DNA of 64,000 nucleotides from Candidatus Iainarchaeum sp. (GCA_002687735.1 NZBD01000015.1:54499-118498), one strand, 5' to 3'; shown: positions 7,857-44,330, counted from the stretch's first letter. The notes: generated by a model from the letters alone, not told the origin. A program made the numbers and translations.

Positions 7857-7893
7857 ATTTATAAATACTTTTAGGGTTGGTTGCCGGTGTCAG
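7857..7893 (-). promoter_or_regulatory. radA promoter: upstream box CTGACACCGGCAACCAACCC plus TATA (AGTATTTATAAATC)
   Basis: Box is 12 nt upstream of the TATA element; the core CACCGGCAACCAACCCTAAA is also present upstream of nurA. Confidence 0.55.
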
Positions 7894-7895
7894 AA

Positions 7896-8726
7896 TTAGT
7901 TTTTATCCGCAAAAATCCTTGCACTCCAGCCTAAGTGCAGTTCAATGCCGTCTCTTCCTTCTTTAGTATAAGCCCCTTCAATCAAAACCTGATCTCCTTC
8001 AGAGTACTTTTCAACCTCATCACACATTTCATTCCATGCTGTTCCTCTGATTTCATTTACTCCTTCACCAATCATAAAGTTCAGTACTTTTCCTTTTCCC
8101 CTTTCAGTTTCAAATTCTTTTGCTGGGAAAACTCTTTTGATTTCAATTTTAACATTCACATCATTCATGTTTGAATCAAGATCAGTTATGCTCACAATAT
8201 TTTTTTCAATTTCAGGAAGTTCAGCAGCCTCATCTTTTACAAAAGAACTGTTATAATTCAGGTTCAACTGTAAAGCATTATTGTAGCTGGTTACTGCACA
8301 GTTGCTAAGTTTTAATGCAGTTCCTTTCTGGATTCCCATTTCTGAAAATTTATCGACATCCTTATTCCATAAAGTAGCTCGTATCTCTCCAGTATCATCC
8401 AGTAATATCAAACTTTGTAATTTTCCCTTTCTTCCGTTTTTATCAAAACTTTTAGGAGCATAAGCCTGCTTTAACCTTGCAATTACATCAATATTATTCA
8501 TCCCATCTTTCAAAGAATCAATCTTTATTGCTTCAGTGGGTTCGCTGTTCAAGCTAACGCCTAATTCTTTAGCAATCATAAAAGCCGCTCCGGAATCAGT
8601 TAATAATCCTGAAAACTTTTCTTTCTTCTGATCTATAAGCTGTTTAACTTCATCATTACTTTTTCCGCTCGAAGAAGCTATTGTCTCAACTATTTTTCCC
8701 GGTTCTGCTGTCGCATTCATTTCCAT
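7896..8726 (-). CDS. replication factor A / RPA-like ssDNA-binding protein (OB folds)
   Basis: Archaeal RPA-like OB-fold pattern; probable start MEMNATAEP. Confidence 0.6.
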   Translation of the reverse strand: MEMNATAEPGKIVETIASSSGKSNDEVKQLIDQKKEKFSGLLTDSGAAFMIAKELGVSLNSEPTEAIKIDSLKDGMNNIDVIARLKQAYAPKSFDKNGRKGKLQSLILLDDTGEIRATLWNKDVDKFSEMGIQKGTALKLSNCAVTSYNNALQLNLNYNSSFVKDEAAELPEIEKNIVSITDLDSNMNDVNVKIEIKRVFPAKEFETERGKGKVLNFMIGEGVNEIRGTAWNEMCDEVEKYSEGDQVLIEGAYTKEGRDGIELHLGWSARIFADKN

Positions 8727-8921
8727 CCTAAAAATCAAGTGGTTAAAGAATAAATAACTTACTCTCAAGAAAGCTATTTATGCCCGAAAATCCGAAAGAG
8801 AATATTTAGGTAATATTTAGTGGTGGGCCTGAACAAATTAAACCCCTTAAAAAGGTTTCCGAGTCAGACGAGTCAGATTACATTTTTATATGCTTTAGAA
8901 GTTAGTTTATTAGTTGATTTT

Positions 8922-9701
8922 ATGGATGACGGCAAAATCTATAAGCAGATATTAAAAAGAATTCAGGAAAAAGGCGGTCTGGCTTTTACAGTAATAGATC
9001 CCCCTAACCAGGAGCCAGTAACATCTGGAAAACTGGCAAAAGTAGCTGAGGAAGCGGGGATAGATGCTATTGCTGTTGGAGGTTCCGTTGGAGCTCAAGG
9101 AGAACTTTTAGATAATACAATTCTTCAGGTAAAGGAAAATTGCTCTTTACCTGTTATTTTATTTCCCGGGAACATTGCGTCAATCAGCAAGCATGCGGAT
9201 GCAATTTATTTCATGTCAATGCTTAATTCTTTAGACCCTTATTACATTACTGGCGCTCAGACCGCTTCTTCTTATCCTTTGAAAAAAACAGGTTTGGAAA
9301 TAATTCCTACCTCTTACATTATTGTTGAACCAGGCAGAGCTGTAGGTTGGGTTGGAAGAAGCCAGCCAATTCCCAGAGAACTTCCTTATTTAGCAGGAAT
9401 AACTGCTCTTGCCGGAGAATATATGGGTTCAAGGTTAGCAATACTGGAATCCGGGGGAGGAGCCCCGAGCCCTGCCCCAAAAGAAATGATTGCTTACACA
9501 AAAAAACTAATTGATATCCCATTATTAGTTGCTGGCGGAGTAAAGAATGATAAGTATGCTTATGATTGTGTAAAAGCAGGAGCCGATATCGTTCATGTTG
9601 GTACTGCTGTTGAAAACACTTCCACTAATTTTTCTAAAGCAAAAGACGTAATGAAAAAACTAGCTGTTGCTGTTACAAAAGCAGGAAAAGAAAAACAATA
9701 A
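8922..9701 (+). CDS. geranylgeranylglyceryl phosphate synthase
   Basis: PcrB/GGGPS TIM-barrel motifs (AIAVGGS, LVAGGGVK); internal ATG chosen as start. Confidence 0.8.
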   Translation: MDDGKIYKQILKRIQEKGGLAFTVIDPPNQEPVTSGKLAKVAEEAGIDAIAVGGSVGAQGELLDNTILQVKENCSLPVILFPGNIASISKHADAIYFMSMLNSLDPYYITGAQTASSYPLKKTGLEIIPTSYIIVEPGRAVGWVGRSQPIPRELPYLAGITALAGEYMGSRLAILESGGGAPSPAPKEMIAYTKKLIDIPLLVAGGVKNDKYAYDCVKAGADIVHVGTAVENTSTNFSKAKDVMKKLAVAVTKAGKEKQ

Positions 9702-10574
9702 TCAGTTCATTAATCTTCTCAGACTTTCTTTAGTCGAAACTTTAAATTCAAATCCAAGAGACTTAATTTTTTTGTTTGAATAATACCTGTCTCTTATCAT
9801 CCTTTTCAAATAAGCAGAGTCTAATAAAGGCACGATTTTCAAGTAACTATTAACAAAAGCAATAATTTTTCCCAAAAAAAGAGGAACCGTTTTCAAAGGT
9901 CTGTTCATTCCGCTTTCAGTTCTAATAAATTCAGCGAGTTCTTTCAGGGTCATTGCTTCATCATCGCAAAGCATAAAAGTTTCCTCAAAACAATTCTCAT
10001 TGTTAACAGAAAATAATATGGCATTCACAACATTTTCCAAAGAAACAAGCTGCCAATGATTAGAACCATCTCCAATAAGCGGAAAATCTTTCCTTATTAG
10101 TTTTACTATTTTATTCCAATAATCAGTTTTTCCTATTATTATTGCGGGCCTGAAAATAGTTACAGGAAAAATTTCCTGATAAGAAAGAACTTTCTGTTCT
10201 GCTTCCCATTTGCTTCTTTCATATCTTGTTTCAGGATTTGGTTTTGTTTCCTCATTTTTTAATCCGGAGGTTTTCCCAAAAACAGCCACACTGCTTAAAA
10301 AAATAAACTGCTTTACTCCGTTTTCTGATGCGGCTTCCAAAACATTTTCTGTACCTTTAACATTAACATCAAACAAATCAGCCGCGTGTTCATCAAGCGT
10401 TGCTGCACAATGCACAACAATATTTGCACCTTTTATAGATTTTTTGACCTGATCCGCTTTAGTAATGTCACAGTTCTGGCGGTTGCATTCAATAACATCA
10501 AAACGCTTTGCTCTCAGTGCTTTAACAAGCGCATTTCCAACTAAACCATTGCCCCCAGTTACTGCAATTTTCAT
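9702..10574 (-). CDS. NAD-dependent epimerase/dehydratase family protein
   Basis: MKIAVTGGNGLVG Rossmann motif. Confidence 0.7.
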   Translation of the reverse strand: MKIAVTGGNGLVGNALVKALRAKRFDVIECNRQNCDITKADQVKKSIKGANIVVHCAATLDEHAADLFDVNVKGTENVLEAASENGVKQFIFLSSVAVFGKTSGLKNEETKPNPETRYERSKWEAEQKVLSYQEIFPVTIFRPAIIIGKTDYWNKIVKLIRKDFPLIGDGSNHWQLVSLENVVNAILFSVNNENCFEETFMLCDDEAMTLKELAEFIRTESGMNRPLKTVPLFLGKIIAFVNSYLKIVPLLDSAYLKRMIRDRYYSNKKIKSLGFEFKVSTKESLRRLMN

Positions 10575-11614
10575 CTTAAATTCCTCATAACAAGTAATAA
10601 GTCTTTTCCGAGTTTTTTCTTTTTCAAAACTCTTACTTTTATAGGTTTCTTAACTTTAAATGCCTTTAAACCCTGTTTAATTTCCCTGTCAGCAATAATA
10701 AAAACCAATCTATCAAACATTTTTTTCCCTAATAATTCTGAAGCAAGTTTGTTTCCTGGTTCAATCAAAACATTTTTTATTCCAAAAGAATAAAGCTTTT
10801 CAAAAGCATCATCCAAACTAATTCCTTTTTTTGAAGCTTTTACAGTAACAACCTTTGCTCCCTTTTCAAGTAAATTTTTTATTTTATTTTTTGGAATTTT
10901 TTTTGTGCAGAAAATAATTGTATTTCCTTTTTCAGAAAGCACTTTAGAATCCAGAGGAATTCTTGCTTTAGAATCAAGTACAACTCTCACAGGATTTTTT
11001 CCTTTCTTTACGCTTAATTTCGGATCATCTTTCAAAACAGTATTGCTTCCAACAATTATTGCATCATTTTGTTCTCGTAGTTTTTGAACAAATCTGGAAG
11101 ATTGTTTTCCGGAAATTTTCTTTTTCTTTCCGTCTCCGAATGAAATAAATCCGTCAATGCTCATGGCGATTTTTATTGTTATTAATGGTTTTTTCTTTAC
11201 AGAATAATTAGTTATGTATAAGTCGTATAGTTTTTTAGCTTCTTTTTCTCTTGTAATTTTTACTGTAATTCCATGTTTCCTTAATTCTTTAGCTCCGTTT
11301 CCTGATTCTTTGTTAGGGTCTCCTTGAGCAATAAAAACACGCTTAATTCCAGCTTTGATAATAGCTTTTGTGCAGGGAGGTTGCTTTCCATAATGATTAC
11401 AAGGCTCAAGTGTTACAAAAAGATCAGCTCCTTTGGCTTTTTTACCTGCTTTTTTCAAAGCTCCAGCCTCAGCATGTTCATCCCCAAATCTCTTGTGATA
11501 GGCTTTTCCAACTATTTTTTCTTCCTTAACAACAACAGCCCCGACCATTGGGTTTGGCCATGTGTCTTTTCCTTTTTCAGCGGCCTTAATTGCTTCTTGC
11601 ATAAAATTTTTCAT
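10571..11614 (-). CDS. ribD: bifunctional riboflavin biosynthesis deaminase/reductase RibD
   Basis: CMP/dCMP deaminase zinc motif (HAE...PCNHYG) plus C-terminal RibD reductase domain. Confidence 0.75.
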   Translation of the reverse strand: MKNFMQEAIKAAEKGKDTWPNPMVGAVVVKEEKIVGKAYHKRFGDEHAEAGALKKAGKKAKGADLFVTLEPCNHYGKQPPCTKAIIKAGIKRVFIAQGDPNKESGNGAKELRKHGITVKITREKEAKKLYDLYITNYSVKKKPLITIKIAMSIDGFISFGDGKKKKISGKQSSRFVQKLREQNDAIIVGSNTVLKDDPKLSVKKGKNPVRVVLDSKARIPLDSKVLSEKGNTIIFCTKKIPKNKIKNLLEKGAKVVTVKASKKGISLDDAFEKLYSFGIKNVLIEPGNKLASELLGKKMFDRLVFIIADREIKQGLKAFKVKKPIKVRVLKKKKLGKDLLLVMRNLR

Positions 11615-12441
11615 TAAAATCCCCCGGTTAATAAAAAGCCCAGTCCGGGAAAAACAAGCGCTAACAAAACCCCTAGAAAAACAAATACTCCAAACCTTGG
11701 AAGATCCCTATAAACAAAAATTTCTTTAATTCCTTTTTTTTCAAGTTCCTTTTTTTCCTTTTCTCCATAAATTCCTTTGAAACCTTTTCCGAGTTTTTCT
11801 CTTTCTTTTTCACTCATAAAATCAAACGCAATTATTTCATCTTCCTCTATATCTTTAAGATTGATTTTTTTCAGAAAAAATTCTTTCCTGATTCCTTTTT
11901 CAAATGCAATAAAAAGAACACCAAAACTAAGAGGGGTTCCAAACAAAAGCAAATAATTATCAGAAACAAAACCTGTTGTTGAAAGCATAAACAAATAAAC
12001 AATCAGGATAACCAAAAAACCAAGCGCTCTCATAATTCCTTGCTTGTTATACTGAAAGTCAATCCCTTTCCGAAAATATTTAATCATATAATAGACTGAC
12101 AGGAAAATTATTGAAGTTAAAGCAGACAAAAGTACAGCTTGAATAATGAAAACACTATCATTGAAAAATGGCAAAGCCAAAGCAATTCCTGTGTAAAGTT
12201 TTACATCCCCGCCGCCAATTTTACCTGTATAATAAAGGACATAACCAATTCCAAAAACTAATATTCCCAAACCAATTCCGGAAAATTCTTGCTCAAGAAT
12301 GTTCACGAATAAGCCAAAAATAATTAGCGGGATTGTTATCCAATCATAAATGTAGCCGGTTTTAAAATCCACATAAGCCCCGACTCCGGAAGCGAGCAAT
12401 ATTGCTATTTGTCTGAGTAAAATAAGTTCCATGTTTATCAA
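11614..12441 (-). CDS. A24-family prepilin/preflagellin peptidase
   Basis: Polytopic membrane protein with catalytic-Asp motifs (AYVDFKTGYI, GGGDVKL). Confidence 0.65.
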   Translation of the reverse strand: MINMELILLRQIAILLASGVGAYVDFKTGYIYDWITIPLIIFGLFVNILEQEFSGIGLGILVFGIGYVLYYTGKIGGGDVKLYTGIALALPFFNDSVFIIQAVLLSALTSIIFLSVYYMIKYFRKGIDFQYNKQGIMRALGFLVILIVYLFMLSTTGFVSDNYLLLFGTPLSFGVLFIAFEKGIRKEFFLKKINLKDIEEDEIIAFDFMSEKEREKLGKGFKGIYGEKEKKELEKKGIKEIFVYRDLPRFGVFVFLGVLLALVFPGLGFLLTGGF

Positions 12442-13784
12442 CGAATTTTGAATTTTTTCTTTTTAGCAAACATCCCCTGTAACTTTTTCATATTCATTCC
12501 TTTCCCGTCTTCAAACTTTTTAGCATCAACATTGCTGAATTGTCTGAAAACTTTTTTCATTTTCTTAAAATTTTTTATAAGTTCTCTTACATCTTCCTGA
12601 GTAACCCCGGAACCTTTCGCAATCCTCGCAATTCTGCTTTTGTTCATTACATCTGGATTTGTTTTTTCTGTTTTAGTCATTGAATCAATCATAAACCCAA
12701 ACTTATTCAGCTTCTGTTCTCCTACCTCTGCCATTTCTTTTGGTAATTGCTGACTCATCCCCATCATGTCAAGAACCTTCCCCATAGGCCCCATCTTTCT
12801 TGCGGCTTTCATCTGCTGGTAAAAAGTTTCTAAAGTAAATTCTCCTTTCAAAAGTTCTTCAGGGTCTATTTGTTCTTCTTCTTGAACTTCTTTTGCTTTC
12901 TCAAGCAATGATTGCAAATCACCATAACCCATTATGCTGCTTAAATATCTTGTTGCATCAAACTCCTGCAAATCATCCGGCTTTTCTCCAGTTCCGATAA
13001 AATAAACGCTTGAATTTGTTGAATGACAGGCTGCTAATGCTCCGCCTCCTTTTGCTGAACCGTCCATTTTTGTTATTATAACTCCGTTAACCCCAACACT
13101 TTTGTGAAATGCTTCCGCTTGTTTCTTTGCTACTTGTCCGACATCAGATCCAATCACTAACCATTTTTCCTTTGCTTTGAAAACATTTTCAATTGCCTTG
13201 ATTTCTTTTGTTAGATCTTCATCCAAAGCACTTCTTCCTGCAGAATCACAAATAACCAAATCATAATCCTTGAATTCCTTTAAACCCTGCTCAATTATTT
13301 TTACCGCATTCTTTTCTTTTTCATTTCCATAAAAATCCGCTTTTACTTTTTTTGCAATAGTTTTTAGTTGTTCAAATGCAGCTGGCCTGAAAACATCCGC
13401 AGCAATAACTCCAACTTTTAATCCTCTTTTGAGGTACCACTTCGCAAGCTTTCCCGTTGTTGTTGTTTTTCCTGATCCGAATAATCCGACAAGTAAAATC
13501 TTTTTCGGTTTTTCCGGCGGTTTTGCATGCCCTCCAAGAATATCAGCAAGGTTATCATGAGTAGCTTTAATCACATGCTCTCTTCTGCTGATTCCTTTTG
13601 GTAAGTCCTGGAATGCTGCTTCTTCAATCTGTTTGCTTAATTTTAGAACTAGGCTTATTTCCACGTCAGAACTAATGAGTGCTCTTTGGAGTTCCTTTAC
13701 TGCTTCTTTAATAGTTGCCTTATCAATTTCTGAGCTGTTTCTTAGTTTCTCTATTGCTTTTCTTAGGTTTTCTCCAAGACTCAT
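12438..13784 (-). CDS. srp54: signal recognition particle protein SRP54
   Basis: NG-domain GTPase motifs (GLFGSGKTTT, DSAGR, TKMDG) and Met-rich M domain. Confidence 0.9.
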   Translation of the reverse strand: MSLGENLRKAIEKLRNSSEIDKATIKEAVKELQRALISSDVEISLVLKLSKQIEEAAFQDLPKGISRREHVIKATHDNLADILGGHAKPPEKPKKILLVGLFGSGKTTTTGKLAKWYLKRGLKVGVIAADVFRPAAFEQLKTIAKKVKADFYGNEKEKNAVKIIEQGLKEFKDYDLVICDSAGRSALDEDLTKEIKAIENVFKAKEKWLVIGSDVGQVAKKQAEAFHKSVGVNGVIITKMDGSAKGGGALAACHSTNSSVYFIGTGEKPDDLQEFDATRYLSSIMGYGDLQSLLEKAKEVQEEEQIDPEELLKGEFTLETFYQQMKAARKMGPMGKVLDMMGMSQQLPKEMAEVGEQKLNKFGFMIDSMTKTEKTNPDVMNKSRIARIAKGSGVTQEDVRELIKNFKKMKKVFRQFSNVDAKKFEDGKGMNMKKLQGMFAKKKKFKIR

Positions 13785-13858
13785 AGTAATCACTAAAATA
13801 TAATAGATTGTATAATAAAAAAAGAATTAAATAGAGGGGAAAAACCCTCCTTTTGTTA

Positions 13859-14077
13859 TTAAGCCTTTGCTACTTCTTGGATTACTTTCTTTCCTTCAGT
13901 TCCTTCTTGTACTTCTTTCTTTTTGGTTCTGAAATTAGCGTATGGTCTGTATTTTGTTTTAGTCCATGCTTCAGGCTGTTTTTTTCTCATTTTGAACTCT
14001 TGTGCGAGTAGTTTCTGTCTGAACTCTTCGTTTGAATCCATTCCTAAAAGATCGTTTAAAGATGCCATGTGAATCAT
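13859..14077 (-). CDS. hypothetical small basic protein
   Basis: 72-aa ORF between TRAM and srp54 genes on the same strand. Confidence 0.3.
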   Translation of the reverse strand: MIHMASLNDLLGMDSNEEFRQKLLAQEFKMRKKQPEAWTKTKYRPYANFRTKKKEVQEGTEGKKVIQEVAKA

Positions 14078-15091: not shown

Positions 15092-15094
15092 AAA

Positions 15095-21017: not shown

Positions 21018-21089
21018 TGCAGCCACGGGGATTCGAACCCCGGCCAAGAGCTTGGAAGGCTCTGATCCTAACCGCTAGACGATGGCTGC
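21018..21089 (-). tRNA. tRNA-Gly (anticodon UCC)
   Basis: 72-nt cloverleaf, acceptor GCAGCCA/TGGCTGC, T-arm GGTTCGAATCC, anticodon loop CUUCCAA. Confidence 0.85.
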
Positions 21090-21971
21090 TTTGACATATT
21101 CTTTATGCGTTGGCACTTTTCTAGTTTCTTTAAAAATCTGGTATTTTATTGTGTGCTTAATATTGCTGGGTTTAATTAGTTTAAAAAAGGTATCCAATTG
21201 TTTCTGATCGTAAATATAAACACTTTTTCCGGACAAACTGGCCTTAAATCCAAGTGAAATCAATGCTTCTTTAATTTGATTAAGAAAATTTGGCGAACAG
21301 CTGATATATTCAACCACTCCGCTATTTTCCCTTTTTCTGTGGAAACTTCCGTCTGTATCAAAAAGTCCTCTAAGATAAGCACAGAGAAGTTTTTCGTTCT
21401 TTAAGATTACTTTTGGAATAAATGTTTTATTTTTTCTATTCCCAATTACAAATTTACATTTTTCTGAAAGAAATAAGACAAGTTCTTTGGAGTAAATCAA
21501 ACACCGAATTGCTCCATTTTTTGTTACAAATGTTGGCTCTAAACCAAATAACTTTTCAAATTTTTTACCAATAACGTTTACAACATAATCATAATCTACT
21601 ATAGCACTACACGTAATTGAGACACGGTTATTTTTACCATAAATGTTACCGTCGCCTGCCATTGCCCCTAGAAATTCTGCTAATCCTTCGTTCAATTCAG
21701 GTTGAGATATTTCTTTTTTCTGAAAATAATTTGATTTTACTATATTTAAAGTATACAATTTTTTCAAATCAAAGTCTGTTTCTATACCAAGAAAAATTAA
21801 TTTGTGAAACCGAATTTTACTGGTTTCTCTTAAATAGTGAAAAATCATCCTTCTTTTTACTTTCAAAATCTTCGCAATTTCGTTCCAATTTAAACCTGAC
21901 TTATTTTTTATTTCTCTTAAAATACTAGCTTGTTTTCCAGAGCCAATATCTACAAATAGAGTTTTTTCCAC
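21075..21971 (-). CDS. free-standing double-motif LAGLIDADG homing endonuclease with N-terminal HTH
   Basis: LAEFLGAMAGDGNI and LRGLFDTDGSF motifs; the last 15 nt of the ORF are the first 15 nt of tRNA-Gly(UCC). Confidence 0.75.
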   Translation of the reverse strand: MEKTLFVDIGSGKQASILREIKNKSGLNWNEIAKILKVKRRMIFHYLRETSKIRFHKLIFLGIETDFDLKKLYTLNIVKSNYFQKKEISQPELNEGLAEFLGAMAGDGNIYGKNNRVSITCSAIVDYDYVVNVIGKKFEKLFGLEPTFVTKNGAIRCLIYSKELVLFLSEKCKFVIGNRKNKTFIPKVILKNEKLLCAYLRGLFDTDGSFHRKRENSGVVEYISCSPNFLNQIKEALISLGFKASLSGKSVYIYDQKQLDTFFKLIKPSNIKHTIKYQIFKETRKVPTHKEYVKAAIV

Positions 21972-21992: not shown

Positions 21993-22033
21993 GCTTTTAA
22001 ACACCCTGAAGCCCCTTGTTGCCGGTGCGAACC
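21993..22033 (-). promoter_or_regulatory. promoter of LAGLIDADG gene: box GGTTCGCACCGGCAAC plus TATA (TTTAAAAGCA)
   Basis: Shared GC-rich upstream box 16 nt 5' of the TATA element. Confidence 0.5.
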
Positions 22034-22068
22034 GTTATTGATTAAAACAAAATGTTTCTTAATAGATT

Positions 22069-22701
22069 ATGCAAAAAGGTATTTTTGTTGTGTGGGAGGG
22101 AATTGATGGTTCCGGAAAAGGAACAGTTATTTCCGAAATCAAGAAATTTATTATAAAGAAAGGAATTCCGGAAAATCAAATCATAGTTACTGCCGAACCC
22201 ACTGGCGGCTTTTATGGAAAAAAAGTAAGGGAACTCCTTAACACACATGTAAATCCTGACGTTAATGCTCAGCAGTTTCTTGATCTTTATGTTGCTGATC
22301 GAGAAGAACATCTGAGGAAAGAAATAGTTCCTGCTCTGAAAGAAGGAAAAATAATTCTGTGTGACAGATTCAAGTACAGTACTTTTGTTTACCAATTGCT
22401 TCAAGGAATAGAGTTAGAAAAAATCAATGAACTCCATAGAGGGATGCTTATTCCTGATTTGGTTTTCATTTTAGATCTTCCAGTTGATGTTGCGTTACAA
22501 CGAATCGAGTCTGATTCAAAAAGATCAAAAAAAGAAGTTTTTGAAAAAAAAGAATTTTTGGAAAAAGTACGTCAGGGTTTTCTTTCATTAAAAGAAATTT
22601 TTCCTGATGAAAACATTCATATAGTTGATTCGTCCAAAAACATTAGCGAAGTAACAAAAGAAATAGGATATATTTTATGGGCGAAGATAAAGGATTTATA
22701 G
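22069..22701 (+). CDS. tmk: thymidylate kinase
   Basis: P-loop GIDGSGKGT and DRF/Y motif. Confidence 0.8.
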   Translation: MQKGIFVVWEGIDGSGKGTVISEIKKFIIKKGIPENQIIVTAEPTGGFYGKKVRELLNTHVNPDVNAQQFLDLYVADREEHLRKEIVPALKEGKIILCDRFKYSTFVYQLLQGIELEKINELHRGMLIPDLVFILDLPVDVALQRIESDSKRSKKEVFEKKEFLEKVRQGFLSLKEIFPDENIHIVDSSKNISEVTKEIGYILWAKIKDL

Positions 22702-35408: not shown

Positions 35409-35447
35409 TTTCGCACCGGCAACCAACCCTAAATTGATTTAAAAACC
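35409..35447 (+). promoter_or_regulatory. nurA operon promoter: box TTTCGCACCGGCAACCAACCC plus TATA (GATTTAAAAACC)
   Basis: The 20-nt string CACCGGCAACCAACCCTAAA is identical to the radA upstream region. Confidence 0.55.
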
Positions 35448-35466: not shown

Positions 35467-36552
35467 ATGAATATGTCCAAAGTGATTGATTCAGCCGTTG
35501 AAACAATCCATTCAGGAGAGCAAAGAAAAAAGCTGGTTACTGAAAAGCTTACTCCGTTAAAGAATAAAGAATTCTTTTCTCCAGAGCTCCCTGAAAAAGC
35601 ATTAGTGCTTCCGGTTCAAAAGTGGGTTCCTGATTGCACAATCGGAGGCGTTGATTCTGGTTTTGTTGCTAAAAGATTAGCTTCTGTTGATTTGGTTCTT
35701 ATTAGAGCAATGGGTGTTTGTTTTGATTACAAAAACGGAATTGTTGACAAAGCAAATTATTATCCGGGTTATTTTCAGTTTCCGGAACCGCACTTAAGCA
35801 ACAATGCTTTAGAAGAGGATGAAGCCGAACAATCAAAATCTTTAATGCGTTTGAAAGAAGAGGTTAAAGCTTCAAAAAAATTAATAGAAGAACATTCTCC
35901 AAAATATTTGTTTATTGATGGTTCTATTGTTCCTCAGTATCAGGACAAACCCAGAAAAGATTCTAAGTTAACTGATAATTATATCGATATTATTCAGGAG
36001 TTTGAATCGTTTTATGAATTAGCTGAAAAAAATAACTGCACTTTAATTTCCACCGTGGAAGATTCAAGAGGTTCCAGATTTAGGGGGATTATTCAGGATG
36101 AAATTCTTGCAAAAGAAAAAATAGTTGAAAAAGAAAAATTAGAAGGTTTGTTTGATTCTGCTTTTTTAGATTATTTTTTAACAAAAGGAGAACGCTCAAG
36201 CTGTTTCACTTACACTAAAAATATTAAGCAACATCCTGTGCTTTCCGATTTCAGTGAAAAATGGAGCAATCACATTTTCGGTTTGTACATCAAGCCCTCT
36301 AATTACGATAAACCATTGAGAGTTGAATTTATTTCTAAAGGAAATCTGAAAGAAAAAGCTGATGAAGTTGCAAAGGTTGCTTTTGCTTTAAGTTCTTTAC
36401 ACCGAGAATACGCTTATCCAAGCATCCTCATAGAGGCGGACATGCATGCTAAATTGAAGCAGGATGAGATCGAAATTGTTTATAACAAAATAATGGATAA
36501 ATTAGGAAACTCAATTAAATTGAAAATGCGGAGAGACAACAGGCCTTTTTAG
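35467..36552 (+). CDS. nurA: DNA double-strand-break repair nuclease NurA
   Basis: NurA motifs GGVDSG, YLFIDGS and C-terminal YPSILIEADMHAKL. Confidence 0.8.
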   Translation: MNMSKVIDSAVETIHSGEQRKKLVTEKLTPLKNKEFFSPELPEKALVLPVQKWVPDCTIGGVDSGFVAKRLASVDLVLIRAMGVCFDYKNGIVDKANYYPGYFQFPEPHLSNNALEEDEAEQSKSLMRLKEEVKASKKLIEEHSPKYLFIDGSIVPQYQDKPRKDSKLTDNYIDIIQEFESFYELAEKNNCTLISTVEDSRGSRFRGIIQDEILAKEKIVEKEKLEGLFDSAFLDYFLTKGERSSCFTYTKNIKQHPVLSDFSEKWSNHIFGLYIKPSNYDKPLRVEFISKGNLKEKADEVAKVAFALSSLHREYAYPSILIEADMHAKLKQDEIEIVYNKIMDKLGNSIKLKMRRDNRPF

Positions 36553-36574
36553 GTTTTTGCAGGATTTGTTATTT

Positions 36575-36691
36575 ATGCTGTGTCCAAAATGCGGTAATGA
36601 TTCTTTTGAAGATCTTCCTCTTGAAAAAGGAAAACAAAAGAAATGCAAAAAATGCGGTTTTGTAGGAAATCCAATGAGTGATATTACATGA
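36575..36691 (+). CDS. zinc-ribbon micro-protein (38 aa) within the nurA-herA operon
   Basis: CPKC...CKKC; ATGA overlap with the next ORF. Confidence 0.45.
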   Translation: MLCPKCGNDSFEDLPLEKGKQKKCKKCGFVGNPMSDIT

Positions 36692-36870
36692 CTCAGGAAG
36701 GAAAAAAGAAAGTAACTTTCTGTTCAAGCTGCGGTTCTGTAAATATAAAACCAAGTTATGCAATGGGAACAATAGACAACAGAGTTGAGTGTCTGGATTG
36801 CAAAACTTTAGAGTTTCCGATTGAGGCTGAAGAAAAATTCAGGCAGAAATTTTTAGAGGAAAAAAAATGA
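36688..36870 (+). CDS. zinc-ribbon protein (60 aa) within the nurA-herA operon
   Basis: CSSC...CLDC; 4-nt overlaps with both neighbours. Confidence 0.5.
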   Translation: MTQEGKKKVTFCSSCGSVNIKPSYAMGTIDNRVECLDCKTLEFPIEAEEKFRQKFLEEKK

Positions 36871-38408
36871 CTGAAAATGAAGAAATAGGAACTGTAATTT
36901 CTACTCCTGAAGGGCCTTCTCCTAGTTCTTTGGATTTTGTTGTTTACTCAGGAACTTTACACAGAGGAATGTTTATTGAGTTGGATTACAAAGAAGGAAC
37001 TCTTGTAGCGCTAGTCACGGATGTTGTTAAAACAAACCGTTATTTTGAAAGAGTTGAATCAGTTAAAGAATTTGAGAGTTCAGGCACAAAACTTTTCGAA
37101 CAGTTTCCAACTCATGAATGGGAATTCCTTTTAGCAAAAACAAAACCTTTAGGGATTTATAATAAAGGAATGATTAAGCGTTCTTCTTTTCCTCCTTCTC
37201 CGGGAACTAAAGTAAGGGTTGCTACAAAAGAAATTCTCGAAAAGTTTTTAGGTTTAGATTTAGAAAAAGGTTTGATGTTAGGAAATATAGAACATCACGA
37301 TGTTTCAGTAAAATTAAACCTGTCAAGGCTTTTTCAAAAACATTTAGCTATTTTAGCAATGAGCGGAGCTGGAAAAAGTTATGCAATTTCTGTTTTACTT
37401 GAGGAACTTTTGGAAAGAAAAAAAGAGGATGGAAGACTTGCTGTTCTTCTTATGGATGCTCATGGAGAGTACAGGAATTTTGCTGAACCAGTTAAAGGTT
37501 CAGAGTTTAAGGATTTTTCTTCCAAAACAAAGTTTGTAAAAGCATCTGAAATAAGCATTGGGGTTTCTAAACTTTCGGCAGGATCTATTGCGGCAATGGT
37601 TCCTTCAATGTCAGGACCGCAAAAAAGAGATCTTGATAAAGTTTTTATGAGATTAAGAAGTGAAATGAAAGATGGGTTGGGTCCTTTTGATTTTAATGCT
37701 ATAAAATCTGAAATAATGAAAGATTCTGAGATTAAAGAAGCAACAAAACAAGCCTTAATAGGTTGGATTGTTTCCTTAGAACAGTTGAACCTTTTTGGAA
37801 AAACAGATAACCCAAGCATTAATGATTTGGTCAGGCCAGGGGAATTAACAATTATTGATTTGAGTGATGTTGTTGATCTGAAGAAGAAACAAATTATTGT
37901 TTCTTATTTTGCAAGAAAACTTTTCAATGAAAGGCGTAACAAACGCATTTCTCCTTTCACAATGGTTGTGGAAGAAGCGCATCAATTCTGTCCTGAGGGG
38001 GCTTCCAGAGAAGCTGCAATCAGCAGAAGCATTATAGAAACAATTGCAAGAGAAGGAAGAAAGTTTGGAGCTTCAATTTGTTTAATTTCCCAAAGGCCAA
38101 TTAATCTTTCAACAACTGCTTTGTCTCAATGCAACACCCACTTAATTCTAAGAGTAACTAATCCTTATGATCTGAAACATATTGGGGAAACAAGTGAAGG
38201 TCTTGATTCAAGAAGCACTGATATGATAACCTCTTTGAGAACCGGGGAAGCATTAATGGTTGGGGAAGCAGTCAATTATCCTGTTTTTTTTAAGGTTAGA
38301 AAAAGACTTTCTCAGCCTTCTATGCACGAGAAAACTCTGGAAGAGGCTTCTGTTGAGTTTGAGGAAGTAAAGGAAGCTTCTCAAAAGGACATTGAGGATT
38401 TACTCTGA
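36867..38408 (+). CDS. herA: HerA helicase (FtsK-HerA superfamily ATPase)
   Basis: N-terminal HAS barrel, Walker A AILAMSGAGKS, Walker B LLMDAHGE, arginine-finger region. Confidence 0.85.
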   Translation: MTENEEIGTVISTPEGPSPSSLDFVVYSGTLHRGMFIELDYKEGTLVALVTDVVKTNRYFERVESVKEFESSGTKLFEQFPTHEWEFLLAKTKPLGIYNKGMIKRSSFPPSPGTKVRVATKEILEKFLGLDLEKGLMLGNIEHHDVSVKLNLSRLFQKHLAILAMSGAGKSYAISVLLEELLERKKEDGRLAVLLMDAHGEYRNFAEPVKGSEFKDFSSKTKFVKASEISIGVSKLSAGSIAAMVPSMSGPQKRDLDKVFMRLRSEMKDGLGPFDFNAIKSEIMKDSEIKEATKQALIGWIVSLEQLNLFGKTDNPSINDLVRPGELTIIDLSDVVDLKKKQIIVSYFARKLFNERRNKRISPFTMVVEEAHQFCPEGASREAAISRSIIETIAREGRKFGASICLISQRPINLSTTALSQCNTHLILRVTNPYDLKHIGETSEGLDSRSTDMITSLRTGEALMVGEAVNYPVFFKVRKRLSQPSMHEKTLEEASVEFEEVKEASQKDIEDLL

Positions 38409-38457
38409 TTCTTTTTAAAAAGACAATTATTATTAACTAATTCTTCGTTTTTTTTGC

Positions 38458-39597: not shown

Positions 39598-39610
39598 TTC
39601 GCACCGGCAA

Positions 39611-39727
39611 TGCACGCCTCAGAAAAACCAAGGTTTTTCCGAGACCTTTTCCTTTTTTGAATCTTTAATTTATAACCCATTGTGAGCAATGGGTTGGACG
39701 TTAGCGTACCACACAGCCGCAACTGTG
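39611..39727 (-). mobile_element. hairpin-headed mini-element copy D (117 bp), flanked by 12-bp duplication TCGCACCGGCAA (39599-39610 / 39728-39739)
   Basis: Minus strand begins CACAGTTGCGGCTGTG directly after the duplication and carries further hairpins (AACCCATTG/CAATGGGTT; AAAAACC/GGTTTTT). It is inserted into a copy of the promoter box. Confidence 0.55.
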
Positions 39728-39768
39728 TCGCACCGGCAACACACCCCTTGAAAATGCTTTTTAAAGCA
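39728..39768 (+). promoter_or_regulatory. promoter of 498-aa gene: box GTCGCACCGGCAAC plus TATA (GCTTTTTAAAGCAG)
   Basis: Box-TATA-ATG arrangement as at radA and nurA. Confidence 0.5.
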
Positions 39769-39785
39769 GAATCAAAAGTTTTAGT

Positions 39786-41282
39786 ATGCTCCATAATACG
39801 CGATTATTCCTGAGCAGGGTTAACTATGTTCCTGAAAAAAGACAGATCACTGTAGAGTTCTCAAAGAAAAACCAGAAGGCTTCAAAAAAATATTCATTTT
39901 TTCCAAAAATGCATCTTTCACTGAAAAAAATTCCCAAAGAACATTTAATCGAGGCTTTAGGAGATTATGATATAAGAAAACTAAAAATGGATTTTAAGGA
40001 AAACACAGTTACTATTTTTGCAGCAACATTTTCAGACCTGAAAAAAGTTAATAATCTTCTGAATAATTTTTTTAATTTCCGTTCAAATTTAATAGAGCCA
40101 GAAAGACAGTTTTTGTTAGAAAAAAATTGGAGTTATTTTGATTCTTTCGATTTTTCAGATTCAGAGCCTGAACAAATTTACACAACTGAATTTCCTGATG
40201 CTTCAATGGATTTTCTTTCAGATTCTTTCAAAGAAACTATAGCGTCCTTATTGCTGAATAATAAATCTCTTGCCAAAGAAACAATTAACAAAATTGTTTT
40301 TTCCAAGTTGTTGAGAATTCCTTTAATAGGAAGAGAAGAAGATAAATCTCTGGAAGAAATTTTTATTGAAAACATTTTTTTCCTTAGTGGAAAACCAATT
40401 TCTATCGGAAAGTCTGGAAACAAATCTTATTTCAGATCAATTCATAAAAAATCAGTTATTGATTTTTCAAAAATGGTTTCAGTAATGGCTTCAAAGCCTT
40501 TTAATAATCTTGGTTTTGAAACCATTAATTGCAGTTGTTGTAAACCTTGGGATAAGGAAGCAAAAAACATTCTGCCTTCTTCTTTGGTTAAGGTTAATTT
40601 TCTGAGAGAAGCTTTTTACTTTGACTCTGTTTCAAGTAACTGGGCTGAAGCGTATCATTTTTCTAATGAGGAAATGCAGACGCGTGAAAAAAGAAAAAAA
40701 GAATATTTTTTGGATTTTTATCCTTCAGGCCCGTTTTCAAGAAACGCTTCTGCAAACATCATTTTGGCTGATGCATTAAAACTTGAACAGAAAGGTTTGG
40801 TTAGAATAGTTTCTCAGGAAAATCCTTCCTGGTTTTGTCTGAAAAATGAAAGTGCTTTTTCTTTGGAAGTTAATCGTTTGTATGAAGCTTTGCTTACTCT
40901 GGATTCGGTTGTTGAGAATGAGAGTAGTTCTGTTGTTGCTTCTGATGGTTTATTTTTCTCTCAATCCCTTGAATCTAGTCCTGGCTATCATTACAGAAAA
41001 ATTTTGAATAAAACAATCTCAAGACTTTTGGCTTCCTTCCCTAGATTACTTACAAATTCCTCTGGAAGGTTTTTCGATAAGAATTTTGCAATTGCTTTGG
41101 AAGCTATTAATAGTCTTATTTTGAAGGATTTTGAGGAAATTGCCCAGAATTCTAAAACAAGGGTTACTTTTAAGGATTCTAGTGCTTTGGTTGATTCTTC
41201 TTCTTTTATGTCAGCTTCTAAAGAGTTCAGAGAGCTTTATAGAGTTGATAAACGCTTGTTGAGCTTCTCTAAGAGCTTTTGA
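39786..41282 (+). CDS. hypothetical 498-aa protein (shares the promoter box with radA and nurA)
   Basis: No recognisable catalytic motif; CSCC cluster; no Mre11 phosphoesterase motifs. Confidence 0.4.
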   Translation: MLHNTRLFLSRVNYVPEKRQITVEFSKKNQKASKKYSFFPKMHLSLKKIPKEHLIEALGDYDIRKLKMDFKENTVTIFAATFSDLKKVNNLLNNFFNFRSNLIEPERQFLLEKNWSYFDSFDFSDSEPEQIYTTEFPDASMDFLSDSFKETIASLLLNNKSLAKETINKIVFSKLLRIPLIGREEDKSLEEIFIENIFFLSGKPISIGKSGNKSYFRSIHKKSVIDFSKMVSVMASKPFNNLGFETINCSCCKPWDKEAKNILPSSLVKVNFLREAFYFDSVSSNWAEAYHFSNEEMQTREKRKKEYFLDFYPSGPFSRNASANIILADALKLEQKGLVRIVSQENPSWFCLKNESAFSLEVNRLYEALLTLDSVVENESSSVVASDGLFFSQSLESSPGYHYRKILNKTISRLLASFPRLLTNSSGRFFDKNFAIALEAINSLILKDFEEIAQNSKTRVTFKDSSALVDSSSFMSASKEFRELYRVDKRLLSFSKSF

Positions 41283-41345
41283 ATCAGGTTTTTAATCCTT
41301 TGCGTGGAGAAAATAGTAGTAAATCCTGATTTTAAGTGATTTTAT

Positions 41346-41552
41346 ATGAGTGATTTGACAAGATTTGAGGTAACTCGTCTTATAAGTGCTAGGGCATTAC
41401 AGCTTTCGCTAGGTGCTCCCGGAATGATCAAGGCGTCAAAAGAAGCCAGCATGATTGATATTGCTAAGGAAGAATTTGATAAGAAAGTTATTCCTATTTC
41501 AGTTTTAAGAGAATTTCCTGATGGAAGTATTGAAAAAATTGAGGCGAATTAG
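41346..41552 (+). CDS. rpoK: DNA-directed RNA polymerase subunit K (Rpb6 homolog)
   Basis: TRFEVTRLISARALQLSLGAP motif. Confidence 0.8.
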   Translation: MSDLTRFEVTRLISARALQLSLGAPGMIKASKEASMIDIAKEEFDKKVIPISVLREFPDGSIEKIEAN

Positions 41553-41553
41553 A

Positions 41554-41745
41554 TTGGGTAAAGCAGTTCCTCAGAACATTAAAAGTAAGGCAAATATACT
41601 TTTACAAACTTATCCTAACGATATGCCAAGTGATTTTGATTCTATTAAAAAATTTGTTGATTCTTTTGAAATGCCAATGAGTAAATCACAGAGAAATCTT
41701 GTTGCTGGTTTTTTAACCAGAAAAAAGTCTCAATCAAAAACCTAG
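41554..41745 (+). CDS. rps17e: 30S ribosomal protein S17e (TTG start)
   Basis: NIKSKANILLQTYPNDMPSDFD...SKSQRNLVAGFLTR fits the S17e pattern; ATG 41521 would overlap rpoK. Confidence 0.6.
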   Translation: MGKAVPQNIKSKANILLQTYPNDMPSDFDSIKKFVDSFEMPMSKSQRNLVAGFLTRKKSQSKT

Positions 41746-43785
41746 TGCTTTTGTAGGTGCATCTTTTTCTTTTTCTCTTTCTAAAGAGTATAATTTTCCT
41801 GATGCTGCATTTTCCATTTCCTTGTCATGAGTGATAATAAAAATTTGTTCAATCAGTTCCGGCAAATGATTCCTCATTGTATCGCTTAATTCTTTAACTG
41901 CATTTATATCTAAATTATGTGTTGGTTCATCCAGAATAATCCACCCAAGATTTTGAGTTAATACAAGTGAGATTGCAATTCTTAGTGTTATTGCTGCGGA
42001 ACTTCTTTCTCCTCCTGAAAGTATTCCCTCTACTCTTGCCCATTGTTCATTTCTTTGTTTAACCATAACCTCATAGCTTCCGTCTTCCACAATTATTTTT
42101 ACATTCAAAAAATCTTTGTAAGGATAAATTCTCGGCCAAATTTCTTCCATTGCCTGATTAACTGTTTCTACCATCATGTTTCTTAGTTCTCCCTGCGTGG
42201 ATTTTAATGCGGAAGTAAAGATTGCCAGTTTTTCCGTTGTTCTTTCGTTTTCTTTAATCTGAATTCCAAGTGCCTTAATCTGATGTTCTGTTTCCTTTAT
42301 TCTTTTCACACTTTCAGTAAGTTCTTTCAATAATTCTTTTCCGCTTGAAATCTCCGTTCTTAATTCAGCATTCTTTTCTTTTAACCCTAAAAACTCTTTT
42401 TCGTGCTTCTCGTGTTCTTTTTCATCAAATCCTGTCTTTTTCATCATTTCCCTTACTTTTTCCATTTCTTTCTCAAGGTCGTTTTTTTGTTTTTCCTTTT
42501 CACTTAATTCTGAAGCTATCTCTTTTAACCTTTCAAGTTCATTAATTTCCTTTTCAATAACCTCGTTTTTTTCTCCTATTTTTCCAACTTCTTCATCTCG
42601 TTTCTCTAAATCTTTTGTTTCTTTTTCTAAATGTAAACTGAGTTCTTTTGTTTTCTCGTGAATTTTTTCTTCTTCCTCTTTAAGCTCTTCCTCAAGCTTT
42701 TTCTTATCATGTTCACTTAAGGGCCTTTTGCAAATTGGACAATCAGAATCAAGTTTTTGTGCATCAGAAACACTTTTTGAATTGGAATTAAGCAAGTTAT
42801 TTTGAACAGCTATTTCTTCTTTAATTTTAGAAACCTTTCCTTCAATTATCCCGATTTCCTTTTCTATTTTTTCAGTTTCTTTCTCACCCCTATCCAGAAT
42901 TTTCTTATTTTCCTTTATTTTCCCTTCAAGTTCTTCAGGTTTTGTTCCTTTCAATTTTTCTCTGTTCGTTTTCAGCTGCTCCGTTAGAGCTTCTGTTTTT
43001 GCTTTGCTTTGAATCTCAAGTTCTTTCAGGAATTTGTTTTCCTTTTCTTTTTCCTCCAGTTGCTTAAGTATTTTTTCTTTTTCATTGATGTGTTTTTCCA
43101 GTTCAGAATTTTCCTTTTCCTTATCATTCAAGGTTTTTTCCTTTTCACTAATCCGTTTTTCATAATTTTCAAGTTCATTCGGATCGCTTTTGTTTTTTTG
43201 TTCATGTAAAAACTTTTTCCTATCATCAATCGTGCGTTTGAGTCTGTTTGTAAGTGTAACAGAATTAGTTCTTACTTTTTCATATTTATCTAATCCTAAT
43301 AATTCATCAAATTTTTCTTTTCTTTGTGCAGGACTCAATTTCAAAAAAAAGTCAATCTGATTCTGTTCCGAATAAATTGCTCTGCTGAATAGTTCGTAAG
43401 AAACTTCTAGTATTTCCTCGATTTTTTTTGTTGTTTCAGTTGTTTTTGGCCCTGCTATTATTTTTCCGGCTTCTCTTAAAGTTCCTTCATTAATTCCCTT
43501 TCTTTTTACAATTCTCTCAACTGAATATTCTTTATCATTATAATCAAACCCAAGTGTTATTTTTGCTGTTTCCTGTTTGTTTGGTTTTGCCATTATGGTT
43601 TCTTCAAGATTAACCTTGCGCGTAGCTAATGTAGGAAACGTGCCATAAAGCGCAAAAGAAATAGCATCCATTATAGAGCTCTTTCCGGAACCCATTTTTC
43701 CCACAATTACATTAGTGCCTTTGGAAAAATCAAGTTCTGTATTATAATGGGTTTTCCAATTTTCCAGTTTAATGGTTTTTATCAT
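41734..43785 (-). CDS. rad50: DNA double-strand-break repair ATPase Rad50
   Basis: Walker A GKMGSGKSS, coiled-coil arm with zinc hook CPICKRP, signature SGGERS, D-loop LDEPT. Confidence 0.85.
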   Translation of the reverse strand: MIKTIKLENWKTHYNTELDFSKGTNVIVGKMGSGKSSIMDAISFALYGTFPTLATRKVNLEETIMAKPNKQETAKITLGFDYNDKEYSVERIVKRKGINEGTLREAGKIIAGPKTTETTKKIEEILEVSYELFSRAIYSEQNQIDFFLKLSPAQRKEKFDELLGLDKYEKVRTNSVTLTNRLKRTIDDRKKFLHEQKNKSDPNELENYEKRISEKEKTLNDKEKENSELEKHINEKEKILKQLEEKEKENKFLKELEIQSKAKTEALTEQLKTNREKLKGTKPEELEGKIKENKKILDRGEKETEKIEKEIGIIEGKVSKIKEEIAVQNNLLNSNSKSVSDAQKLDSDCPICKRPLSEHDKKKLEEELKEEEEKIHEKTKELSLHLEKETKDLEKRDEEVGKIGEKNEVIEKEINELERLKEIASELSEKEKQKNDLEKEMEKVREMMKKTGFDEKEHEKHEKEFLGLKEKNAELRTEISSGKELLKELTESVKRIKETEHQIKALGIQIKENERTTEKLAIFTSALKSTQGELRNMMVETVNQAMEEIWPRIYPYKDFLNVKIIVEDGSYEVMVKQRNEQWARVEGILSGGERSSAAITLRIAISLVLTQNLGWIILDEPTHNLDINAVKELSDTMRNHLPELIEQIFIITHDKEMENAASGKLYSLEREKEKDAPTKALGF

Positions 43786-43821
43786 TAAAATAATTAGAGT
43801 CTAAAAACAGTTTTAAGACTA

Positions 43822-44085
43822 TTATAAAAGAGTCATTCCGATTTGTTCTACTTCTTCAATGGTAGCCATTTCTTCTAGTTCTTTAGTGGCTTTTTCCATT
43901 GCATTTTCTTCTTTCTCGTTCACAATTACGCCTACTTTAAGAATAACAATTCCAAACCCAATTGGATCATCTTTTATGTCTTTAACTTCTCCAGATTTAA
44001 GGGTCTGAATTTCTTTTTTTGTTTCCTCTAATTTTTCCATGTCCTTAGGAGTAACTTTGTATATGATAAAACTCTTGTCAGGCAT
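43822..44085 (-). CDS. ef1b: translation elongation factor aEF-1 beta
   Basis: 88 aa with GFGIVILKV core, acidic. Confidence 0.7.
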   Translation of the reverse strand: MPDKSFIIYKVTPKDMEKLEETKKEIQTLKSGEVKDIKDDPIGFGIVILKVGVIVNEKEENAMEKATKELEEMATIEEVEQIGMTLL

Positions 44086-44094
44086 TAGTATCAC

Positions 44095-44247
44095 TTATGG
44101 TCCGGTGAATTCGCATTCAGGACATTTATAATCAAGGCTTCTTGTACGGGCTTCCATGCTTCTGGTTAGTCTTTCCCCGCAATTTGGACACTTGAATTCA
44201 ACAAAATCGTCAGTAACGAGCTTGTTTGTTGTTACGCATGTTTTCAT
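44095..44247 (-). CDS. Zn-ribbon RNA-binding protein (COG2888-like), 50 aa
   Basis: CPNCG...CPEC; conserved partner of aEF-1beta; absent from the ORF track (<60 aa). Confidence 0.6.
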   Translation of the reverse strand: MKTCVTTNKLVTDDFVEFKCPNCGERLTRSMEARTRSLDYKCPECEFTGP

Positions 44248-44294
44248 ACTACTATTCTCTAATTAGTTAGCTTTAAAAAGGTTGATTTAGGGTT

Positions 44295-44330
44295 TTCGCA
44301 TCGGCAATGATGTCTCGAAAGTATTTAAAG
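44295..44330 (+). promoter_or_regulatory. promoter of DUF5678-like/protease pair: box TTCGCATCGGCAAT (variant) plus TATA (TATTTAAAG)
   Basis: Same box-spacer-TATA geometry; two mismatches to the core. Confidence 0.4.

Follow-up and report, generated by a model that had tools for sequence, protein, structure and literature searches.

We analyzed a 64,000-nt stretch of DNA from Candidatus Iainarchaeum sp. (NZBD01000015.1:54499-118498). This whole stretch is called the window below, and all window counts and coordinates refer to its full 64 kb. Its sequence, with a GC content of approximately 34%, is that of an ordinary stretch of DPANN archaeal chromosome. Five promoters in it share a short GC-rich sequence, (T)CGCACCGGCAAY, upstream of the TATA box. 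This sequence (the box) precedes radA, nurA (followed by two zinc-ribbon open reading frames (ORFs) and herA), a gene for a 298-aa protein with a helix-turn-helix (HTH) and LAGLIDADG motifs, a gene for a 498-aa protein, and a pair of genes for a DUF5678 protein and an aspartic protease (Table 1). Approximately 50 window ORFs were scanned against Pfam; syntenic loci of relatives were judged from precomputed Pfam listings. The scan bore out the gene assignments of a preliminary description of this DNA (Rad51/RadA, LAGLIDADG_3, NurA, HerA (DUF87), DUF5678, and Asp_protease_2). One gene start had to be moved: the DUF5678 ORF, said to begin at 44307, starts at the ATG at 44370 and encodes 69 aa. 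Literature searches turned up no description of the GC-rich motif or of any Iainarchaeota regulon.

We found that the box is over-represented and confined to intergenic DNA. Its six copies are the only good matches within the window. Searching with TCGCACCGGCAAC and allowing up to 2 mismatches gave 6 matches, compared to 0.20 expected, and none of 100 shuffled sequences (0/100) reached 6. The heptamer ACCGGCA occurs five times in the window, each time (5/5) in a box. All six copies are intergenic (P about 4e-7, given that 8.4% of the window is intergenic) and lie where the preliminary description had placed them. Copies at similar frequency inside genes would have counted against that description; no copy lay in window coding sequence. 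A position weight matrix (PWM) trained solely on radA promoters of other genomes ranked the six sites as its top six, with scores of 15.5-26.7 bits. The next best site scored 14.6 bits, and the mean maximum in shuffled sequences was 14.2.

Alignment of sites from the window and from related genomes showed that the box is an 18-nt asymmetric element with the consensus cgCACCGGCAAY-nn-RSYC. Information reaches beyond the 13-mer, in that CACCGGCAAY is followed by two variable positions and then by R-[C/G]-[C/T]-C. Except for the central CCGG, the box is not palindromic. Directly 3' of the extended element, and abutting its 3' half, is an A-rich stretch resembling a TFB recognition element (BRE), and then the TATA box. 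The box itself is distinct from a BRE: its core is 14-17 nt away from the TATA box, with the separate A-rich BRE-like stretch between them.

The position and orientation of the box are constrained. Five of the six copies precede a TATA box and point toward the downstream gene, with constant orientation on the coding strand. The preliminary description gave a spacing of 12-17 nt to the TATA boxes; the TATA boxes stand, and the spacers, measured from the 10-mer core, are 14-17 nt. It was also right that the radA and nurA sites share 20 identical nt (CACCGGCAACCAACCCTAAA); their TATA regions are similar as well. Because the nurA ATG is just 21 nt past the TATA box, the nurA mRNA is probably leaderless. 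With transcription predicted to start about 24 nt after the TATA box, the mRNAs of the 498-aa and LAGLIDADG genes would be leaderless too. Over-representation, restriction to promoters, fixed position and orientation, and conservation at orthologous promoters (below) are the general properties of a cis-acting element, and the box has all of them.

The sixth copy is an orphan. A Na/Ca-exchanger gene ends immediately before it, and its 21 nt directly repeat (86%) the proximal box of the 498-aa gene, 129 nt downstream. The closest relative has no such copy in the orthologous spacer. Directly 3' of the orphan (region 39618-39660) is a terminator-like hairpin (39618-39643; CTCAGAAAAACC / GGTTTTTCCGAG) followed by a T-run.

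Table 1. Box copies, promoter elements, and associated genes in the window
Feature	Position	Strand	Remarks
radA box TGACACCGGCAACCAACCC	7874-7892	-	10-mer core 7880-7889; 13-mer 7880-7892; 22.3 bits
radA TATA box TTTATAAA	7858-7865	-	14 nt downstream of box core
radA 5' leader	7760-7835	-	approximately 75 nt; conserved stem-loop architecture and Shine-Dalgarno GGAGG
radA	6812-7759	-	315 aa; Rad51/RadA recombinase (Pfam)
HTH-LAGLIDADG gene box	22012-22030	-	13-mer 22018-22030; 17.6 bits; in divergent spacer shared with tmk
HTH-LAGLIDADG gene TATA box TTTAAAAG	21994-22001	-	spacer 16 nt
HTH-LAGLIDADG gene	21075-21971	-	298 aa; Pfam LAGLIDADG_3; N-terminal HTH
tmk (thymidylate kinase)	22069-22701	+	divergent from HTH-LAGLIDADG gene
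nurA box TCGCACCGGCAACCAACCC	35411-35429	+	13-mer 35411-35423; 26.7 bits
nurA operon TATA box TTTAAAAA	35438-35445	+	spacer 14 nt
nurA	35467-36552	+	Pfam NurA
Two zinc-ribbon ORFs between nurA and herA	36557-36691 and 36688-36870	+	
herA	36867-38408	+	Pfam HerA (DUF87)
Orphan distal box copy	39599-39619	+	13-mer 39599-39611; no TATA box
498-aa gene box TCGCACCGGCAACACACCC	39728-39746	+	13-mer 39728-39740; 25.8 bits
498-aa gene TATA box TTTTTAAA	39758-39765	+	spacer 17 nt
498-aa gene	39786-41282	+	no Pfam match; family B DNA polymerase fold
DUF5678 degenerate box TCGCATCGGCAATGATGTC	44296-44314	+	13-mer 44296-44308; 15.5 bits
DUF5678/protease pair TATA box TTTAAAGC	44324-44331	+	spacer 15 nt
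DUF5678 gene	44370-44579	+	69 aa; Pfam DUF5678
Retropepsin-like aspartic protease gene	44579-44995	+	DSGA motif; Pfam Asp_protease_2

We found that the box is conserved in relatives. A search with the RadA protein retrieved 46 loci (58-91% identity) from metagenome-assembled genomes labeled Candidatus Iainarchaeum, Diapherotrites, or Micrarchaeota, and other archaea ranked below these. Scoring as a box any site of at least 12 bits on the PWM that was followed by a TATA box, we found one upstream of radA in 27 of 45 Iainarchaeota-like loci, compared to 0 of 34 loci of other archaea. A strict box-plus-TATA pattern had 23 matches in 709 kb of radA-flanking DNA of relatives, and 19 of the 23 were the radA promoter. 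Five relatives also contain a distinct conserved 26-mer, ATAAGAAGTTGGAATAACTTCTAAAC, upstream of a TATA-like sequence (L002 8170, L011 996, L013 150, L020 466, and L041 3016; L-numbers denote loci of relatives used for comparison). Its distance upstream of radA varies, from about 1.7 to 9 kb.

The preliminary description had proposed relatives as a check on the radA and nurA promoters, and in relatives the box precedes the orthologues of both genes and of the 498-aa, LAGLIDADG, and DUF5678 genes. In six relatives' loci (L086, L081/L087, L089, L091, L092, and L093) there was a box upstream of both nurA and the 498-aa orthologue, whose product was 82% to 32% identical to the window protein. In L086 the DUF5678/protease pair is also preceded by a box, and this orthologous site is a perfect box. 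The HTH-LAGLIDADG gene of L147 (65% identity) has one, as does a second LAGLIDADG gene in L093. Further box-bearing genes in relatives are MazE-PIN and PIN genes and small genes of 62-70 aa. Boxes occur in tandem in L091 and L092, where the tandem copies have no TATA box of their own. A search of metagenome contigs for HerA gave five loci, and the distant ones among them (L083-L085, 48-58% identity, probably not Iainarchaeota) had neither a box nor an upstream nurA. We found no support for a virus-borne copy: an exact box-plus-TATA scan of 2.9 million viral contigs gave 53 matches, which is within chance range.

We found that the box differs between lineages and that it changes in concert within a genome. 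The variants CACCGGCAAY, CACTGGAAAT, and TAGCGGAAAT shift together across different promoters of one genome. By lineage, the sequence is CACCGGCAAC in the window, CACCGGCAAT in L001/L086 and L089, CACCGGCAC[CT] in L087 and L091, CACTGGAAAT in L092, and T[AA/AG]CGGAAAT in L093. The boxes of nurA and of the 498-aa (polB-like, see below) gene differed at 2.29 of 18 positions within a genome, compared to 6.21 between genomes (exact permutation p=0.001). Both halves of the 18-nt element co-vary, each individually significant. Concerted change at separate promoters is the signature expected if one trans-acting reader co-evolves with its site. Shared descent of the DNA is hard to reconcile with it.

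We found that the product of the 498-aa gene has the fold of a family B DNA polymerase (PolB), with N-terminal domain, palm, and fingers. A profile search against PDB sequences gave seven weak matches (E about 0.1), six of them family B polymerases. In the weak profile alignment, motif A (VLDFSSMYPNIMMKYNLSPDT; canonically DxxSLYPS) falls on 'elDFSkv...NlGfet' and motif C (YGDTDS) on 'FKDSSA', which is not conserved. Of 48 homologues, 44 keep the Asp of motif A (D226-F-S). Motif B (KxxxNSxYG) and motif C are degenerate and not conserved, and at positions 464-466 (the DxD of motif C), which vary among the 48 homologues, neither Asp is conserved. Approximately 220 residues precede motif A, compared to approximately 409 in PolB, and the chain stops approximately 30 residues past the motif C hairpin, with no thumb. 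The degenerate motifs and truncated ends therefore indicate a PolB derivative that lacks the thumb and has a strongly reduced exonuclease region; it is unlikely to be an ordinary polymerase. The residues C249-x-C251-C252 and C351 do not vary in the family. A profile search of 1.84 billion proteins gave 246 matches at E<=0.001; among the 150 matches listed there was solely the ~500-aa family, with no sequence bridge to canonical PolB. The preliminary description had assigned this gene, then without a known function, to a DNA-damage response. The PolB fold supports the link to DNA metabolism, and a part in the response to damage would be a step beyond it.

The 498-aa protein resembles the 'inactivated' PolB2/Dpo2 polymerases in its PolB fold, decayed exonuclease domain, substituted motif C, and putative link to damage regulation (PMC4104785, PMC11791011, PMC8764526). 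It differs from them in being thumb-less and ~500 aa long, with a Cys cluster and a synteny of its own, among nurA-herA and rad50. The second Asp of the PolB2 motif C DxD (e.g., IID in S. islandicus) did not appear as a conserved residue in the 48 homologues. PolB2 neighborhoods are defined by iRadA and PPB2 (arCOG07300) (PMC11791011, PMC4104785), and both were absent from the eight loci compared here, where the neighbors are herA, a variable membrane-protein gene, rpoK, S17e, and rad50.

The order nurA-(variable)-herA-(variable membrane-protein gene)-polB-like-rpoK-S17e-rad50 (opposite strand) was kept in all eight loci examined (8/8). The slot between nurA and herA holds two zinc-ribbon ORFs in the window, L086, and L081/L087, and in L087 also a 56-aa MazE-like ORF (6845-7015). 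In L089-L091 it holds a PIN-domain gene after a small ORF (MazE-like in L089/L090), plus another ORF (L089/L090 4574-5204; L091 4614-5238). HerA is 850-1149 aa long in several relatives (L089 5793-9242, L091 5837-9253, and L086 6106-8658). Pfam Intein_splicing and LAGLIDADG_3 are listed for HerA of L089-L091, and the RadA of L043 appears to be ~850 aa. There seem to be inteins in two box-regulated genes (herA and radA) of relatives, and none in the window. The window rad50 (41734-43785, minus strand) has no adjacent Mre11 gene, and the polB-like gene holds the conserved place between herA and rad50. No Mre11-type Metallophos match was found among the window ORFs scanned, and the sole Metallophos gene listed for the syntenic loci L086-L093 is a 215-aa ORF in L092 (20205-20852).

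In the 298-aa protein, an N-terminal HTH is joined to two LAGLIDADG motifs (LAEFLGAMAGDG and LRGLFDTDG) whose acidic residues are retained. Some homologues match the XRE-type HTH family PF01381, and proteins of this kind, 290-300 aa long, are found across DPANN. Homologues outside the Iainarchaeota clade (L148 and L149) have no box. The window box lies in a 97-nt divergent spacer, inverted and 10 nt from the TATA-like sequence ATTAAAAC (22041-22048) of tmk, whose ATG is at 22069. The divergent gene pair is retained in L147, and tmk may be co-regulated through this box. At its 3' end the HTH-LAGLIDADG ORF overlaps a tRNA-Gly(TCC) gene (21018-21089, same strand) by 15 nt.

The DUF5678 protein was considered as a candidate DNA-binding regulator. 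Its structure model, of moderate confidence (pLDDT, the model's per-residue confidence, 72), had no PDB match at E<=0.001 and hence no recognizable DNA-binding fold. The spacer that holds its box (44247-44308) is shared with the divergent aS21-EF1beta(-rad50) genes. In the minus-strand direction, the inverted box leads into AAACCCTAAA, then 6 nt and TTTTTAAAG, an arrangement that is not conserved in L086. AAACCCTAAA is identical to the 3' half-sequence of the radA and nurA boxes.

We found a second conserved feature in the radA transcript. The leader can fold into a nested structure: P1, an AAA internal loop, P2, an apical hairpin with a GCCAA loop, an AAAAA internal loop, and P1', followed by the Shine-Dalgarno sequence. 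The same nested structure was found in 19 of 20 radA leaders of relatives (within L003-L041), each folded independently. A covariance model (R2) built from radA leaders had 17 matches in 900 kb, 15 of which were radA leaders. On its alignment, which is fitted to the model, 86% of cells pair, compared to 59% in shuffles and far fewer in slid controls, and compensatory changes occur at all 13 pairs (13/13). The window's own radA leader has the fold, yet it was not retrieved by the model at E<=0.1. Rfam gave no match to the leader at the gathering threshold, and RNAalifold predicted no structure on a MAFFT alignment of the leaders, in which the stems are misaligned. These comparisons suggest that the radA leader is a conserved structured RNA and would be a second, independent layer of regulation.

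We think it likely that the box is the upstream site of one sequence-specific transcription factor that co-regulates genes of recombination and DNA metabolism and acts as an activator. A transcription-factor regulon, as the preliminary description had predicted, is well supported by the sequence comparisons: the box is conserved and constrained in position, and its variants co-vary between promoters. According to this model, a single factor in Iainarchaeota (Diapherotrites, DPANN) would read the approximately 18-bp box in one orientation on the coding strand. The box would span roughly -56 to -39 from the predicted transcription start, ending next to the A-rich BRE, and the bound factor would most likely help to recruit TFB/TBP and thereby activate transcription. 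The co-regulated set would include radA, nurA-znr-znr-herA, and the genes for the PolB-like protein, the HTH-LAGLIDADG nuclease-like protein, and the DUF5678 and protease pair, which may then have a role in repair. In relatives, VapBC/MazE-type modules would join the set. DNA breaks or replication stress are the most plausible signal, because the gene content parallels that of the bacterial SOS regulon. We favor activation because archaeal sites upstream of the BRE and TATA box usually activate and because there is the precedent of Orc1-2. Among archaeal regulators (TrmB/TrmBL1, SurR, Ptr2, and Orc1-2), sites upstream of the BRE and TATA box are mostly activating, and repressor sites overlap or follow the TATA box.

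Several observations weigh against this interpretation. In relatives, 18 of 45 radA promoters were below the PWM threshold; several of them bear divergent variants, and those of L035, L036, and L039 show no box at all. In the window there is no box at rad50, hjc, the RPA-like gene immediately upstream of radA, or the dnaG-like gene, and rad50 promoters inspected in seven genomes had none either. Because these genes lack it, the box does not define a complete or general repair regulon. Overall, the interpretation in the preliminary description is partly supported. For the protease pair and the toxin-antitoxin genes, a tie to repair would be conjectural. Just 4-6 kb separate the promoters of nurA and the polB-like gene, and gene conversion could add to the concordance of their boxes. 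Finally, the near-consensus TATA boxes make strong-looking core promoters that would also suit a repressor.

The alternatives concern what reads the box and to what effect. One that we take seriously, while thinking it improbable, is that the reader is a protein of the Orc1/Cdc6 family and the box a diverged element like the mini origin recognition box (mini-ORB); this would refine the activator model rather than exclude it. An Orc1/Cdc6 paralogue is, by analogy, a lead to the factor. The mini-ORB consensus has TTCC and GAA cores (e.g., TTCCAGTGGAACT), and some lineage variants of the box resemble its TTCC..GGAA (L045 TTCCACTGGAAAG, L008 CGCAGTGGAAAT, and L092 CGCACTGGAAAT) (PMC1904270). In Sulfolobus islandicus, Orc1-2 activates damage-response promoters by binding an upstream element and controls dpo2/PolB2 (PMC6061795). 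Damage induces PolB2, and orc1/cdc6 genes are enriched in the neighborhoods of its gene (PMC11791011, PMC7390963). However, the resemblance is short and could be due to chance, and the window box has neither the TTCC nor the GAA core, with 6/13 identities when aligned by eye. Unlike origin recognition boxes, its copies are single and promoter-linked and are not clustered at an AT-rich origin beside orc1/cdc6. No orc1/cdc6 gene was found among the Pfam-scanned window ORFs or in the Pfam listings of the syntenic loci. The HTH-LAGLIDADG protein was also considered as the factor. It is a possible candidate without support here: its family includes the box-less lineages L148 and L149, and it keeps the catalytic Asp, unlike WhiA.

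The same site and regulon might instead be served by a repressor of the LexA or DdrO kind, occluding the BRE from -56 to -39 until damage inactivates it, perhaps through the box-linked aspartic protease. The near-consensus TATA boxes (TTTATAAA and TTTAAAAA) and the A-rich BRE-like sequence lead one to expect high basal activity, and the 3' half of the element abuts the BRE. A protease gene is among the box-bearing genes, and a cooperatively binding repressor would fit with the second, distal box of the 498-aa gene and with the tandem copies in L091 and L092. Nevertheless, we consider a repressor, although a serious alternative, unlikely. Archaeal sites upstream of the BRE and TATA box usually activate, the DUF5678 protein matched no PDB fold, and nothing ties the protease to a regulator.

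We regard it as very unlikely that the basal machinery reads the box as an element of the core-promoter class (through an alternative TFB or TBP paralogue, or as an UP-like element), so that it marks a constitutive or cell-cycle class of promoters. Its strict orientation and TATA distance and its contiguity with the BRE would fit such an element, and TFB paralogues do direct damage responses in Sulfolobus (TFB3, PMC6101594). However, a spacer range of 14-17 nt is unusual for an element contacted together with the BRE and TATA box, just 5 promoters in 64 kb bear the box, and the orphan and tandem copies have no TATA box of their own. Hardly credible is a promoter cassette with no trans-acting factor, alike from site to site by common descent after duplication, gene conversion, or carriage by a small mobile element: the identical stretch and similar TATA regions at radA and nurA and the recent local duplication behind the orphan copy would fit it, but the flanks of the box sites are unrelated, the spacer DNA around the box has diverged between genomes whose proteins are 32-60% identical and the box nonetheless persists at their orthologous promoters, unlinked promoters show concerted change of variants, and the exact matches in viral contigs lack the extended motif, lie mostly in GC-richer DNA, and look random.

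The activator model has a counterpart in Sulfolobales, where the DNA damage-responsive element (DDRE), 5'-ANTTTC-3', was defined on promoters such as upsA, upsE, tfb3, and cedA1, and where the damage-response promoters of S. islandicus have an upstream element bound by the activator Orc1-2 (PMC6061795). Both elements are archaeal, short, asymmetric, promoter-proximal, and common to a small set of genes, and the DDRE acts through an activator. Both sets include a divergent family B polymerase, dpo2/PolB2 there and the 498-aa PolB-like protein here (PMC6061795, PMC7390963). In contrast to the DDRE, the box reads CACCGGCAAY, occurs in DPANN rather than Thermoproteota, and lies at radA and nurA-herA. 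The hexanucleotide ANTTTC does not appear in the conserved positions of the box or in its reverse complement (RTTGCCGGTG). The box regulon differs in sequence, lineage, and gene content from the sole characterized archaeal case.

The gene content of the box regulon is like that of the SOS regulon of E. coli, which includes recA (radA here), the family B polymerase gene polB, nucleases, and toxin-antitoxin modules. In that regulon a self-cleaving repressor, LexA, binds palindromic operators overlapping the promoter. In contrast, the element described here is asymmetric and lies upstream of the BRE and TATA box of an archaeal promoter, and no LexA-type S24 peptidase was found among the window ORFs scanned against Pfam. 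PafBC, acting with RecA-NDp in Actinobacteria, and DriD in Caulobacter are activators that read an asymmetric motif immediately upstream of the core promoters of recA and repair genes. The box resembles their sites in being an asymmetric motif upstream of the core promoter of recombinase and repair genes. These bacterial activators, however, have WYL domains and serve sigma-factor promoters, and their sites are unrelated to the box in sequence.

We put forward tentatively, and with real doubt, a broader proposal: that Iainarchaeota have an SOS-like, damage-inducible regulon, the first in archaea with radA and NurA-HerA, governed by a factor of a family not yet known that co-evolves with the 18-bp element, together with a new thumb-less PolB-like family working with NurA-HerA/Rad50 and control of radA by its leader RNA. 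The box suggests in addition that a PolB-derived protein is the partner of NurA-HerA in these archaea.

For archaea, a mechanistic understanding of damage-responsive transcription is confined essentially to the Sulfolobales (Orc1-2 and TFB3), whose element was defined on promoters other than those of recombination genes. If our interpretation is correct, the box would mark the first defined recombination regulon in DPANN archaea, uncultivated organisms with very small genomes and next to no known regulation. The box could serve directly as bait, and the variants seen in different lineages offer a route to the factor. The regulon would also give a functional context to three obscure families: the 498-aa PolB-like proteins (246 clusters), the DPANN-wide HTH-LAGLIDADG proteins, and the DUF5678/retropepsin pair.

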